Below are positions 58,701 to 61,766 of a DNA stretch of 61,766 bases, piece by piece. The translations under genes and the position numbers were made by a program. This stretch comes from a virus (lineage: Duplodnaviria; Caudoviricetes): positions 1 through 61,766 of the IMG/VR virus record IMGVR_UViG_3300029787_000034. The stretch is one strand, 5' to 3'. How positions within the stretch are numbered: position 1 is the stretch's first letter; the number at the start of each line of letters is the position of its first letter. The notes under the pieces were generated by a model. The model was not told the DNA's origin and made no database searches. It worked only from the letters and a program-made list of their open reading frames with translations.

Positions 58701-59367
58701 TAAAAAACTGAAGGAGGGGACATCCAAGTCCCATTCTGCAGCAGAGAATACCAAGTTTGTATCATCGTTTCTCCGAGGGGTCTTAGATCCTGAGGAGTAT
58801 CGTAAGTTATTAGCAAACTTCTATTTTGTCTATGACACTATGGAAAGAGAGGTCAAAAGTTCCAAGGATCCTATCGTTGGAGAACTAAAGCAATGGTCTA
58901 GAGAATTAAACCGTGTACCATTTCTAGAAAGAGATCTCTTATATTATTATGGTCCCAACTGGAAGGATGTGATAGAACCATCCTCTGCATGTGATACCTA
59001 CTGTTGGCGAATCAAACAAGTAGCACATGATGAACCCTATCTTTTAGTAGCACACCACTACACACGTTACATAGGTGACTTATCTGGTGGTCAGATACTA
59101 AGAAAGATAGCAGAGAAAGCATTAAAACCTCCTCTAGGTGAGGGGTTAATGTTCTACGAGTTCCCTTGTATTGATGATGCAAAGGAATGGAAGACAAATT
59201 ACAAATCTGTGTTAGACTCTATGGAGTTTAATACACAAGAAGAAAATGCTCTAATCACTGAAGCAAACTATGCGTTCAGACTTAACATGTATATGTTCGA
59301 TGAGGTACAGGGCAGTGCCACTAAATCATTATTAAAAGTATTATGGGGATTTTTAACAGGTAAGTAA
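58693..59367 (+). CDS. ho1: Heme oxygenase
   Basis: LKEGTSKSHSAAEN, AHHYTRYIGDLSGGQIL, EANYAFRLNM. Confidence 0.95.
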   Translation: MFSKKLKEGTSKSHSAAENTKFVSSFLRGVLDPEEYRKLLANFYFVYDTMEREVKSSKDPIVGELKQWSRELNRVPFLERDLLYYYGPNWKDVIEPSSACDTYCWRIKQVAHDEPYLLVAHHYTRYIGDLSGGQILRKIAEKALKPPLGEGLMFYEFPCIDDAKEWKTNYKSVLDSMEFNTQEENALITEANYAFRLNMYMFDEVQGSATKSLLKVLWGFLTGK

Positions 59368-60503
59368 TGGGGACAACAGTTTTTAACTCTACTAAAGTAG
59401 ACACCAAGAAGCAACCTATGTTCTTCGGGCAACCCTTAGGGATGCAACAGTATGTGGATTTTAAGTATCCAGATTTTGATAGACTAACTCAATCACAATT
59501 GGGATTCTTTTGGAGACCAGAGGAAGTATCCTTACAGAAGGATCGTTCTGACTACAAGACACTTAATGATCAGCAGAGACACATCTATACAAGTAATTTA
59601 AAATATCAGATCCTTCTTGACTCAGTGCAAGGTAGAGGACCAGGCATGGCATTTAAACCATACTGTAGTCTACCTGAGTTGGAAGGAGCAATGAGTGTAT
59701 GGGAATTCATGGAGGGTATTCACTCAAGATCCTACACTCACATCATCAAAAATGTTTATCCAGATCCAAGTGAAGTCCTAGACACTGTACTTGAGGACGA
59801 TAAAATTATCCAAAGAGCTCAATCAGTTACCAAAGCATACGATGACTTCATCGATTGTGCACAGGAATACGCAGTAGGTAACATGTGGAAACCTTCATGG
59901 AAGGATTCTCCCACATCAACTTGGACTCTTCGTGACATCAAAAGAAAACTTTACAAGGCAGTAGTTAATGTTAACATTCTTGAGGGCATCAGATTTTATG
60001 TCTCATTCGCTTGCTCATTTGCGTTTGGTGAACTCAAACTTATGGAAGGATCCGCTAAGATTATCGCTCTCATCGCACGAGACGAAAGTCAGCATCTTGC
60101 ACTTACTCAAAAGATAATTAAGAAGTGGCAGCAAGGTGATGATCCAGACATGATAGAGATTGCTAAGGAAGAGCAAGAGAATGTTAGAACTATGTTTAGA
60201 CAGACAGTTGCAGAAGAGAAGGACTGGGCTAAGTACCTGTTCGCTCAAGGCAGCATGATAGGTCTGAATGAAAGGCTACTGTGTCAATACGTTGAGTGGA
60301 TAGCTAACCGTAGAATGAAAGCGATTGGTTTAGACCCAGAGTATGAGATAGCAGCAAGAAACAACCCACTACCATGGACTAACCACTGGTTAAACAGTAA
60401 GGGTCAGCAGAATGCACCTCAGGAAACTGAGATTGAGTCCTACGTAGTTGGAGGAATCAAACAAGATGTCACCGAAGATACATTCACAGGATTCGAGCTC
60501 TAA
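59367..60503 (+). CDS. nrdB: Ribonucleotide reductase class I beta subunit
   Basis: FWRPEE, LDSVQGR, EGIHSRSY, EGIRFYVSF, RDESQH, PQETEIESY. Confidence 0.97.
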   Translation: MGTTVFNSTKVDTKKQPMFFGQPLGMQQYVDFKYPDFDRLTQSQLGFFWRPEEVSLQKDRSDYKTLNDQQRHIYTSNLKYQILLDSVQGRGPGMAFKPYCSLPELEGAMSVWEFMEGIHSRSYTHIIKNVYPDPSEVLDTVLEDDKIIQRAQSVTKAYDDFIDCAQEYAVGNMWKPSWKDSPTSTWTLRDIKRKLYKAVVNVNILEGIRFYVSFACSFAFGELKLMEGSAKIIALIARDESQHLALTQKIIKKWQQGDDPDMIEIAKEEQENVRTMFRQTVAEEKDWAKYLFAQGSMIGLNERLLCQYVEWIANRRMKAIGLDPEYEIAARNNPLPWTNHWLNSKGQQNAPQETEIESYVVGGIKQDVTEDTFTGFEL

Positions 60504-60519
60504 TTTTTTAGAGCATTTA

Positions 60520-60681
60520 ATGAAATGGCAAAAAGGAAGAGACCACAACGACAGAGTGATCCTCTCAATCAAAGACCAGAGAACTGGTATCAAGGACCAC
60601 TTGAGTTTTTTACGTTCCCTCAAGAGGGACTTACGGAAAACCAGACCTCTAAGACCTCGAAGAGGTAACAAATGTAACTAG
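60520..60681 (+). CDS. Small basic hypothetical protein (alternative open frame 60525-60668)
   Basis: Two overlapping + frames are open; I cannot tell which is real. Confidence 0.35.
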   Translation: MKWQKGRDHNDRVILSIKDQRTGIKDHLSFLRSLKRDLRKTRPLRPRRGNKCN

Positions 60682-60689
60682 TTTGTTGC

Positions 60690-60696
60690 ATAAATA
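60690..60696 (+). promoter_or_regulatory. Late promoter (ATAAATA) upstream of the tandem aptamers
   Basis: Lies about 25 nt upstream of aptamer 1. Confidence 0.65.
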
Positions 60697-60721
60697 GTAT
60701 TGATATGCTAACATATCCATA

Positions 60722-60952
60722 CGTTCATCCAATGCAAGGACTTTACTTACTAGCGATGCTCCTCTCTGATCATCACCCTTCCCACTGGGAAATGTCATGT
60801 GATGAGTGGAACCGAAACAGGATTGAGATACTCAGCGATGGGAATCTTAACTCTGACTCTCATGAGTATCTCATAGATTACTTTAAGAGCAAGGTTTCGG
60901 ATAGTGAATGTAAAGCTTGGTCTATTGGACGCAAGTAAGCCGACTCGGAACG
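60722..60952 (+). ncRNA. Glutamine-riboswitch-like aptamer 1 with an ORF in its P2 loop
   Basis: 5' CGTTCA-TCCAATG ... TATTGGA-CGCAAGTAAGCCGACTCG-GAACG 3'; P1 CGTTC/GAACG; P2 TCCAAT/ATTGGA. Confidence 0.75.
60732..60938 (+). CDS. Aptamer-embedded small protein 1 (68 aa; hydrophobic N-terminus, two Cys)
   Basis: MQGLYLLAMLL...MSCDEW...ECKAWSIGRK. Confidence 0.65.
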   Translation: MQGLYLLAMLLSDHHPSHWEMSCDEWNRNRIEILSDGNLNSDSHEYLIDYFKSKVSDSECKAWSIGRK

Positions 60953-60956
60953 GATT

Positions 60957-61153
60957 CGTTCATCCTATGTACAACATACTACTCAGTCTAATAGCAATAG
61001 GAGCACCACTTGATTGTGGTCATGCTGCTGAACTATTAGAAAGTGTCATCAACAACCCTAATAGATCTGAGAGATTAGAACTAACAAGAGTTATAGTTGC
61101 ACACACTGACCCCATATGTTTTCCATCGGACGCAAAAGACGACTGAAGGAACG
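60957..61153 (+). ncRNA. Glutamine-riboswitch-like aptamer 2 with an ORF in its P2 loop
   Basis: 5' CGTTCA-TCCTATG ... CATCGGA-CGCAAAAGACGACTGAAG-GAACG 3'. Confidence 0.78.
60967..61146 (+). CDS. Aptamer-embedded small protein 2 (59 aa; hydrophobic N-terminus, two Cys)
   Basis: MYNILLSLIAIGAPLDC...ICFPSDAKDD. Confidence 0.65.
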   Translation: MYNILLSLIAIGAPLDCGHAAELLESVINNPNRSERLELTRVIVAHTDPICFPSDAKDD

Positions 61154-61188
61154 GTCTAATCAACCTCATTCCAACAGGAGAAACCCAA

Positions 61189-61314
61189 ATGGCTAACGTC
61201 ACATACCGTGGAGTTCAGTACGATACAAAGAATCGTCCTAATCAGAACACACAACAGAAGAACGATACACCTCTAGTGTACCGTGGAATAAAAGTAGCAA
61301 AAGGAGACAAGTAA
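61189..61314 (+). CDS. DUF4278-like peptide (41 aa), not in ORF track
   Basis: SD AGGAG; MANVTYRGVQYDT...LVYRGIK contains two YRG motifs. Confidence 0.85.
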   Translation: MANVTYRGVQYDTKNRPNQNTQQKNDTPLVYRGIKVAKGDK

Positions 61315-61315
61315 C

Positions 61316-61402
61316 ATGCTAGTAACTACAGAGATCATGCTTGCCAGTGTGCTATTTCTGGCAGTCATCTACGCAGAAGTACGCTTTCTCTATTCCCACT
61401 AA
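61316..61402 (+). CDS. Tiny TM peptide (28 aa), not in ORF track
   Basis: SD AAGGAG; MLVTTEIMLASVLFLAVIYAEVRFLYSH. Confidence 0.6.
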   Translation: MLVTTEIMLASVLFLAVIYAEVRFLYSH

Positions 61403-61446
61403 ATAATGATGACATCTTTCGTGCGATGTCTTCATTCGGAACTTAC

Positions 61447-61473
61447 AGACCCCTACTAGTAGGGGTCTTTTTT
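61447..61473 (+). terminator. Rho-independent terminator
   Basis: AGACCCCT-ACTAGT-AGGGGTCT followed by a T-tract. Confidence 0.88.
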
Positions 61474-61564
61474 ATGTCAGGAAATGCAAATTAAAAGAAG
61501 TTTAATAATGTATTAAGGATCACATAACTTGTATAATATAGTGAGGTTTATTCTAGAAAAACTC

Positions 61565-61766
61565 ATGAAAGCATTAGCAGTTGGCCTGCTCGCTCTTGGT
61601 GTATCAGCACCAGTAGTCGCAGGACCTTACGTTTCCACCAAGGTAGCAGCCAAGGGTGAGAACTCAGACTTCGAGAAGACAGAAGTCGAAGCTCGTATCG
61701 GATACGAAACAAAAACAGGTAATTTAAAACCTTACATCGAAATCGGTCCTAACTGGGAGATGAAAG
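61565..61766 (+). CDS. Outer-membrane beta-barrel-like exported protein, 3'-truncated
   Basis: Signal MKALAVGLLALGVSAPVVA|GPYV; alternating strands EARIGYE and PYIEIGP. Confidence 0.7.
   Translation, partial: MKALAVGLLALGVSAPVVAGPYVSTKVAAKGENSDFEKTEVEARIGYETKTGNLKPYIEIGPNWEMK

Follow-up and report, generated by a model that had tools for sequence, protein, structure and literature searches.

Tandem glutamine-riboswitch-type aptamers of cyanomyoviruses that enclose small protein-coding genes within their P2 hairpins

The viral DNA analyzed here, referred to as the window, is the 61,766-nucleotide (nt) stretch of IMG/VR record IMGVR_UViG_3300029787_000034 (Duplodnaviria; Caudoviricetes), which carries close to its right end two consecutive RNA elements followed by a small gene of the DUF4278 type. 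An earlier note, made from the sequence alone, had taken these elements for tandem glutamine-riboswitch-like aptamers, each with a whole protein-coding gene inside the loop of its second helix (P2). Upon reading positions 60400-61766, we found the coordinates given there for the P1 and P2 helices and for the start and stop codons to be correct for both units. The tandem is composed of the following features, in which ORF denotes an open reading frame.

60722..60952, + strand: aptamer unit 1, 231 nt; P1 is CGTTC (60722-26) with GAACG (60948-52), P2 is TCCAATG (60728-34) with TATTGGA (60923-29), forming six Watson-Crick pairs and one G-T pair, and the core is 60930-47
60732..60938, + strand: ORF1, 68 aa, family 1A, phrog_6471; its ATG at 60732 lies in P2, and its last codons, GGA CGC AAG TAA (TAA at 60936-38), are core sequence
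~60760-60810 and ~60818-60855, + strand: pair of conserved hairpins within the coding region of ORF1 (RNAalifold, 40 family-1A units)
60953..60956, + strand: inter-unit linker, 4 nt, as read from the sequence
60957..61153, + strand: aptamer unit 2, 197 nt; P1 is CGTTC (60957-61) with GAACG (61149-53), P2 is TCCTATG (60963-69) with CATCGGA (61124-30), with one T/C mismatch and with the ATG paired to CAT, and the core is 61131-48
60967..61146, + strand: ORF2, 59 aa, phrog_504; its ATG at 60967 lies in P2, and the core encodes its tail, D-A-K-D-D, plus the TGA at 61144-46
61177-80 and 61189-61314, + strand: GGAG ribosome-binding site and DUF4278 (IF17-like) gene, 41 aa, Pfam PF14105

Two copies of the 3′ core pattern were counted in the window, both at these units, while 0.00 occurrences were expected from 100 shuffles; CGTTCATCC is likewise found twice, at the same two units, with 0.18 expected. 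A program-made ORF list places both starts at upstream alternatives in the same frame (60705..60938 and 60904..61146). When unit 1 was folded alone, the aptamer fold was the minimum free energy (MFE) structure, with probabilities of 0.87 for P1 and 0.82 for P2.

A 19-nt stretch taken from unit 1 retrieved at least 119 loci from IMG/VR; 116 of them contain both units, and the two positions together supplied 239 units. In these, the P2 region is bimodal in length, being 11-43 nt in 125 and 137-225 nt in 114 units (n = 239, listed loci), and all four architectures were present among the 116 listed loci: short-long in 61, short-short in 26, long-long in 19, and long-short in 10. At least one nested gene resides in 90 of the 116 sampled cyanomyovirus loci, and one ORF family, that of unit 2, comprises 823 homologous clusters; the architecture is therefore common in cyanomyoviruses. 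A BLAST search against phage records returned 40 records, all of them cyanophages or marine virus genomes from single-cell amplifications, and a degenerate 17-nt scan of genome contigs gave apparent chance matches in unrelated bacteria. At the same position before the DUF4278 gene, S-PM2 has two ordinary short-hairpin aptamers, which score 33.3 and 24.4 bits with the Rfam model of glnA RNA (RF01739; gathering score, 35 bits). In P-SSM2, aptamer 1 is short (35.1 bits, at the gathering score) and aptamer 2 is split by a homologue of the window ORF2, and P-HM1 carries ORFs in both aptamers, as the window does.

Such natural short-hairpin orthologues, which have the same flanks, formed the basis of the comparison with Rfam. 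In 20 related loci, RF01739 matched 22 of the 30 short units at E ≤ 0.1, and two more were matched only by RF01704, the Glutamine-II or Downstream-peptide motif; 13 of the 30 reached the gathering score, the best at 40.3 bits, and none of the 10 gene-bearing units in those loci was detected by the Rfam models. With RF01704, whose model includes a 3′ pseudoknot-forming part, the short orthologues scored 23.9-29 bits and, unlike Glutamine-II members, stayed below the cut-off of 33. The core of window unit 1 is identical to the commonest core of the short-hairpin orthologues, that of unit 2 is one loop base off the commonest short-form core, and the aptamer flanks in the window match those of the short forms. 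Both window units also possess the 5-bp CGUUC/GAACG P1 of RF01739, which is invariant in 78 unit-2 and 40 unit-1 relatives, along with its core nucleotides. A P2 helix with covariation is present as well, strong in the unit-2 family and weaker in unit 1, where one ORF family (1B) is invariant, and a property of RF01739 that the window units lack is a contiguous aptamer of ~50-60 nt at the gathering score. These data indicated that the window units are glutamine-riboswitch-type aptamers descended from the glnA RNA class, with putative binding of L-glutamine, and the proposal of a glutamine-riboswitch-like tandem is thereby upheld by orthologues that match RF01739 at the same two positions.

The inserts of the long units were then read as genes. 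In all 114 of them an ATG follows the first base of CGTTCA at a distance of 9-13 nt, in a frame that remains open across the whole insert, whereas openness across 80% or more of the insert is rare in the two other sense frames (2 and 1 of the 114 units). For the ORF interiors, the median ratio of nonsynonymous to synonymous substitution rates (dN/dS) was 0.09 in family 1A (1,159 pairs), 0.14 in family 1B (843 pairs), and 0.19-0.26 in the length classes of unit 2. It could be argued that the inserts are non-coding structured RNA domains in which the open frames are incidental, since the interiors are more stable than their shuffles (MFE of −65.3 versus −52.5 for unit 1 and −42.9 versus −34.5 for unit 2) and contain covarying hairpins. 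We regard this as very improbable given the frame that is open in every unit and the low dN/dS values, to which are added alignment gaps of whole codons, two invariant Cys residues, the hydrophobic N-terminal leader of family 1B, and confident AlphaFold2 (AF2) folds. Thus, the inserts are, by these coding signatures, protein-coding genes under purifying selection, which agrees with the claim that a whole gene sits within each P2.

The stop codons of these genes lie at fixed places. Among the unit-2 ORFs, 76 of 83 stop at the core TGA or TAA (with a tail such as D-A-K-A-D), three stop in the 3′ P2 strand, and four read through; in unit 1, 10 ORFs of family 1A stop at the core TAA with a G-R-K tail, and 21 of family 1B have their stop within the 3′ P2 strand or immediately ahead of it. 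ORF1 is related to phrog_6471 (E = 7.5e-28) and ORF2 to phrog_504 (E = 1.3e-5). A common plan is shared by the three ORF families, consisting of a hydrophobic N-terminus and two invariant Cys ~35-37 residues apart, and AF2 predicted three helices for ORF1 (mean predicted local distance difference test score [pLDDT], 85.8) and the same topology for ORF2 (pLDDT, 75.9). When family profiles were compared, Cys was aligned to Cys (A2 with A4, 46% probability and E = 2e-4; A3 with A4, E = 0.0095; A2 with A3, E = 0.12), so that homology among the families is suggestive but not firm. The inner proteins have no match in Pfam, and the ESM Atlas gave viral hypothetical proteins only. Foldseek against the PDB found none at E ≤ 0.001, the best being a disulfide-stapled mini protein A domain at E = 2.5, a resemblance only, and the matches in BFVD are uncharacterized cyanophage proteins. 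The ORF nested in aptamer 2 of P-SSM2 (record NC_006883; 740-889 of our locus L003) is unannotated there, and a 49-aa P-SSM2 protein is present in BFVD. In family 1B (unit 1 of L016, L019, and other loci), the hydrophobic leader, MTKALLLLAWVPLLS, is signal-peptide-like by eye, and the protein ends in Cys; the family-1B protein, unlike that of family 1A, may be exported.

We also asked where these genes are found, fetching family-1A and family-1B loci by interior peptide motifs that are blind to the aptamer and taking the best 80 of 280 and the best 80 of 265, respectively. Both aptamer halves flank the family-1A gene in 80/80 loci and the family-1B gene in 78/80, the other two ending at a contig edge. 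Among these best loci listed, the two families occur only inside aptamers. For unit 2, 119 of the best 120 of the 823 clusters have the ending DAK[AVEG]D, the remaining one being a read-through, a retrieval that is biased by the tail, and the aptamer-only setting of this family rests on it. In cellular genome collections, family 1A had three convincing matches, namely, two Prochlorococcus contigs from single-cell or metagenome-assembled genomes (MAGs) and one contig labeled Rhodospirillaceae, in addition to one weak partial match in a Clostridia MAG; one of the convincing matches lies on a 189-kb contig that equals a viral contig of IMG/VR in length. Had each P2 loop simply received a small gene that ruined the aptamer, the two halves would be remnants. 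The P2 terminal loop does accept insertions, and their presence or absence differs among phages, but the halves are invariant and P2 covaries while unit-2 ORFs have diverged to 19-37% identity with the window ORF2, and both halves are retained in 158/158 complete loci. This contrast between deep ORF divergence and invariant halves led us to reject a relic or neutral insertion, which is highly implausible.

The pairing of P2 across the genes was scored from fixed anchors in distinct sequences, with slid partners and shuffles as controls, because MAFFT alignments either displaced the 5′ P2 strand (in mixtures of short and long units) or gapped it. For the first five P2 pairs, 4.75-4.94 of 5 were standard in long units versus 4.77-4.96 of 5 in short units. 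The 78 distinct long sequences of unit 2 showed extensive exchange at these pairs: pair 3 is TA in 36, CG in 24, TG in 17, and AT in 1 (100% standard); pair 4 is AT in 32, CG in 27, TA in 11, and TG in 3, with 5 non-standard (94% standard); and pair 5 is AT in 32, TA in 30, TG in 7, and CG in 4, again with 5 non-standard (94% standard). The mean paired fraction was 0.844 versus 0.674 after shuffling, a value that 0/500 shuffles reached, and slid partners gave 0.36-0.52. Cognate P2 strands form 6.24 contiguous pairs at −7.9 kcal/mol, versus 3.21 pairs at −3.9 kcal/mol for non-cognate strands.

These counts also bear on a different assembly of the same strands, in which the 3′ half of unit 1 and the 5′ half of unit 2 would make one circularly permuted aptamer between the genes, with a linker-capped P1 and an open P2, leaving the outer halves orphan. 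The middle 58 nt is in fact the best-conserved BLAST stretch (92-95% identity in distant phages), and the cross pairing would form 6/7 pairs in the window. Across relatives, the unit-2 5′ strand averages only 3.0-3.3 of 5 pairs with the unit-1 3′ strand, all five pairs form in 0/16 long-long loci versus 13/16 and 15/16 for the nested pairing, and the supposed orphan halves are equally conserved. We rejected the permuted aptamer on the cross-pairing counts, and it is hardly credible.

For family 1A, a structure was assembled for 40 sequences from P1, a hand-supplied P2, and two RNAalifold hairpins, so it derives in part from the same alignment; RNAalifold alone dropped P2, owing to misalignment of the 5′ strand. 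On this structure, 94.2% of cells were paired versus 33-47% with slid partners, 14 pairs changed on both sides, and 0/500 shuffles reached this level. The first P2 pair changes from U-A to G-C, the base of P2 is 100% paired, and within the AUG, the U pairs in 36/39 and the G in 34/39 sequences. The hairpins internal to ORF1, also taken from the same alignment, had 94-96% of cells paired, with several covarying pairs (e.g., UA in 21 and CG in 15), and the coding RNA of ORF1 seems to prolong P2 as a structured element. Whole-unit partition functions gave P2 a probability of 0.80 in unit 2 (n = 78) and 0.60 in unit 1 (n = 28), which fell to 0.20 and 0.27, respectively, when the interior was shuffled. 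Pairing of the AUG, noticed initially in the window, extends to the homologues: at least two of its three bases pair with the 3′ P2 zone in 79% of unit-2 and 71% of unit-1 sequences, versus 32% and 21% in the controls. Together, these comparisons indicate that P2 is kept by selection across the nested gene.

The core is where the end of a gene and the sensor coincide, and codon usage there was compared with that of the ORF interiors. Within the five terminal codons of 71 distinct unit-2 ORFs there were zero synonymous changes. Asp in the terminal core codons is GAC 141 times and GAT never, versus 97 GAT and 26 GAC in the interior; Ala at the fourth-last codon is GCA in 71/71, versus 92/202 in the interior; and the terminal Lys is AAA in 60/60, versus 150 AAA and 92 AAG in the interior. 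Core variants that change the amino acid do exist (K to E or Q; A to V or D) and recur as base variants in non-coding short aptamers; one P2 change, from C-G to T-A, converts a conserved Asp to Asn. These data indicated that the shared bases follow RNA rather than protein constraint. They offer a natural test case of clear dual coding and RNA constraint, in which the overlapped codons show no synonymous change.

The same positions help to judge whether the gene-bearing units still sense a ligand. The P1/P2 helix might only limit translation or stabilize the mRNA, glutamine binding having been lost and the halves retained for a long-range helix and for the neighboring unit. AUG burial indeed requires P2 alone, and Rfam scores nothing for gene-bearing units. 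On the other side, a plain helix has no use for the unpaired nucleotides of the core, yet these are no less invariant in long than in short units, synonymous positions included, and the 19 of 116 loci with genes in both aptamers would lack all sensing and yet have kept every core base. Loss of glutamine binding is thus unlikely.

Taken together, we interpret the leader as tandem glnA-RNA-type aptamers in front of a DUF4278/IF17-like gene, in which the P2 hairpins have been replaced by genes of ~170-200 nt and folding of the aptamer and translation of the inner gene would be mutually exclusive, a reading to which we assign a probability of roughly 0.7. The translated gene would itself be part of the sensor, with which it shares bases in P2 and core; therefore, sensing and translation must compete on one RNA. 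On any single RNA molecule, then, only one of the two could proceed. The inner gene would be translatable as long as the 3′ P2 strand is untranscribed or whenever the helix is open, and ribosomes traversing it to the stop codon in the core would unfold the sensor. Closure of P1 and P2, aided by glutamine, would bury the AUG, leave the sensor intact, and act on the DUF4278 gene. For the Synechocystis gifB leader, Klahn 2018 (PMC6212724) reports that glutamine binding opens an inhibitory duplex and thereby allows gifB translation, and the closed, glutamine-bound tandem might switch on the DUF4278 gene in the same manner. The likely net effect would be that output of the inner small proteins is opposite to, or shifted in time from, that of the IF17-like protein, depending on nitrogen status and translation load. 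By reading of the window, neither inner ATG is visibly preceded by a Shine-Dalgarno sequence, and access to the AUG should therefore matter. Glutamine-specific hiding of the start codon and melting of the aptamer by ribosomes may reasonably be expected from this anatomy, although it is uncertain whether glutamine itself changes AUG access.

Several observations weigh against this interpretation. The solved structure of the aptamer forms P2 with or without ligand, so that AUG burial may not depend on glutamine. In the window itself, Rfam reported no glutamine family at the gathering score, at E ≤ 1 over the whole record, or at E ≤ 10 over 60600-61450, a silence that we attribute to the splitting of the aptamers by ~200 nt; in truncated mode, a 5′ fragment of Glutamine-II alone was obtained for 60918-60975 (8.1 bits, E = 3.3). 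P2 of window unit 2 is weak, with 3 + 3 pairs flanking a mismatch, and when this unit was folded alone, the probabilities were 0.12 for P1 and 0.05 for P2; a competing local hairpin prevailed, with the aptamer fold only 1.9 kcal/mol above the MFE. P2 covariation in homologues, put forward earlier as a check, was present in unit 2 and in family 1A, as described above, but not throughout: the long forms of unit 1 are too invariant, their anchor-based covariation being matched by 211/500 shuffles, and P2 of family 1B is an invariant 6-bp helix, which speaks for conservation only.

Folding of the whole tandem raised a further objection, since it favored an outer helix (0.81-0.92) and an inner hairpin (0.46-0.70) over each unit's own P1 (0.00-0.04). 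This corresponds to a domain-swapped, interlocked tandem: the outermost P1 strands, 5′ in unit 1 and 3′ in unit 2, join into one helix, and the inner two fold back on each other across the linker as a small hairpin, with both cores in one large junction. The swapped form could be a resting state resolved by glutamine or the working state, and the genes are inside P2 either way. The preference was seen in all four architectures, short-short included, and in the fold of the window (outer helix, 0.55; inner hairpin, 0.82), and the spacing between units is strict (a 3-nt linker in 98 and a 4-nt linker in 14 of the 116 listed loci). Against the swap, isolated single units form their own P1 with a probability of 0.77-0.80, cross-unit P2 pairing is poor (2.4-3.5 of 5 pairs), the energy model omits tertiary contacts and ligand, and single glnA aptamers bind glutamine alone. 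Covariation is no guide to the choice between own-unit and swapped P1 because P1 is invariant. We consider the swapped tandem somewhat unlikely as an alternative to the nested tandem with unit-own P1 helices.

An extended version of the nested-tandem reading, which we put forward tentatively, is a ribosome-coupled riboswitch with two outputs. The sensor would read glutamine only when the inner gene is untranslated, and closure would bury the start codon; low glutamine or an early stage would yield the two-Cys proteins and high glutamine the IF17-like protein, while the 3-nt-linked pair with exchangeable P1 strands would possibly add cooperativity.

Compared with known systems, the phage units resemble glnA RNA (RF01739), as exemplified by the Synechocystis gifB/IF17 leader (PMC6212724), in having P1 CGUUC/GAACG, a conserved core, and a variable, covarying P2. 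They also have in common with it the placement before a DUF4278 gene and the tandem layout, an arrangement of glnA RNA noted in Weinberg 2010. In contrast to glnA RNA, the P2 terminal loop of the phage units is, as read from the sequence, a protein-coding gene of 137-225 nt with its start codon in P2 and its stop codon in the core, and no contiguous aptamer exists in the gene-bearing units, so that covariance-model scans miss them. Phage riboswitch counts are therefore too low. The third hairpin of the phage core is reduced, and the core is intermediate between RF01739 and RF01704. With the latter, Glutamine-II, the phage units share the 5′ CGUUCA and GGAACG elements and the downstream gene family. 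Riboswitches of the Glutamine-II class precede DUF4278/Yfr6-type genes of marine picocyanobacteria, and we know of no nested gene in any of them.

More distant parallels are found outside the glutamine riboswitches. Group I and group II introns, which are self-splicing ribozymes encoding mobility or maturase enzymes, hold ORFs in peripheral loops; as in the phage units, the gene is within a loop of a folded RNA and its translation competes with folding, but the phage RNA is a predicted ligand sensor and its ORFs encode two-Cys helical proteins of 50-70 aa. In riboswitch leaders with upstream ORFs, such as the cobalamin leaders of Mycobacterium tuberculosis, and in leader-peptide attenuators, a small ORF lies downstream of the aptamer, in the expression platform. 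There, too, small-ORF translation and the conformation of a regulatory leader RNA are coupled, whereas the phage ORF lies inside the aptamer and shares nucleotides with P2 and core. To our knowledge, published accounts treat riboswitch aptamers as compact domains without coding function. Our full-text literature searches, which covered main article texts, yielded no account of a gene inside an aptamer. We regard the gene-bearing unit, judged on sequence comparison, as a new form of glutamine riboswitch, which descends from and probably works as a member of the class but has no contiguous aptamer that the models recognize.

The region upstream of the tandem and the genes behind it contain the following additional features.

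60665..60678, + strand: NtcA-box-like GTA-N8-AAC, one mismatch to GTA-N8-TAC, centered ~50 nt before aptamer 1
60686..60714, + strand: weak sigma-70-like promoter candidate, TTGCAT (60686-91), 17-nt spacer, TAACAT (60709-14), overlapping ATAAATA (60690-96)
61316..61402, + strand: hydrophobic 28-aa ORF, beginning 2 nt past the DUF4278 stop codon
61447..61475, + strand: intrinsic-terminator-like hairpin (61447-68; 9 pairs, 5 of them G-C), followed by TTTTTT, which closes the unit

The ATAAATA motif, on which the suggestion of a preceding late promoter was based, is present in the window, but it lies upstream in only 13 of 116 related loci, while a sigma-70-like promoter was found in 64 of the 116. 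GTA-N8-TAC occurs no more than 110 nt upstream in 90/112 related loci, mostly centered at −50 to −55, versus 4/77 control stretches. The sigma-70-like candidate of the window has 8/12 matches, and a sigma-70 promoter scan of the + strand upstream of the aptamers gave none above threshold; P-HM1 has TTGCTA-N17-TAACAT at the homologous place. Because the GTA-N8-TAC and sigma-70-like elements outnumber ATAAATA in the relatives, transcription by host polymerase with NtcA-type control is more probable for the unit than use of a late promoter, and the proposed tie to phage late expression is not sustained.

Downstream, a YRG-type (DUF4278-like) ORF begins 31-41 nt past aptamer 2 in 91 of the 94 loci whose sequence extends far enough, and 87 of these 91 have GGAG. 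In the window, the gene product (61189-61311) scores 26.0 bits with PF14105 versus a cut-off of 25.3 (E = 1.2e-5) and matches phrog_5049 at 1.3e-13, and the identification of a DUF4278-like gene at this place accordingly holds. The combination of an NtcA-type box, glutamine sensors, and an IF17-like protein suggests that cyanophages read the nitrogen status of their host. The 28-aa ORF has no family match in Pfam or PHROG; a similar ORF start follows the DUF4278 gene of P-HM1.

Between the riboswitch unit and the gene at 59367-60503, a ribonucleotide reductase small chain (PF00268, 185.6 bits), lies a very basic 47-aa ORF (60525-60668, starting MAKRKRPQRQ) with no Pfam or PHROG match. On the other flank, 61565-61765 is the start of a cyanophage outer-membrane-protein-like beta barrel (PF24653, 68.2 bits) that runs past the window end. 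Other RNA elements occur near related tandems: two related viral contigs carry manA RNA (RF01745) a few hundred bases from the glutamine unit (L006, 125-321, − strand, 182.6 bits; L061, 1006-1278, + strand, 167.8 bits), followed in L061 by a tRNA. In viral contig L071 (114-203, strand-oriented), two extra short aptamers lie ~470 nt upstream of the usual pair, which makes four units in ~800 nt.

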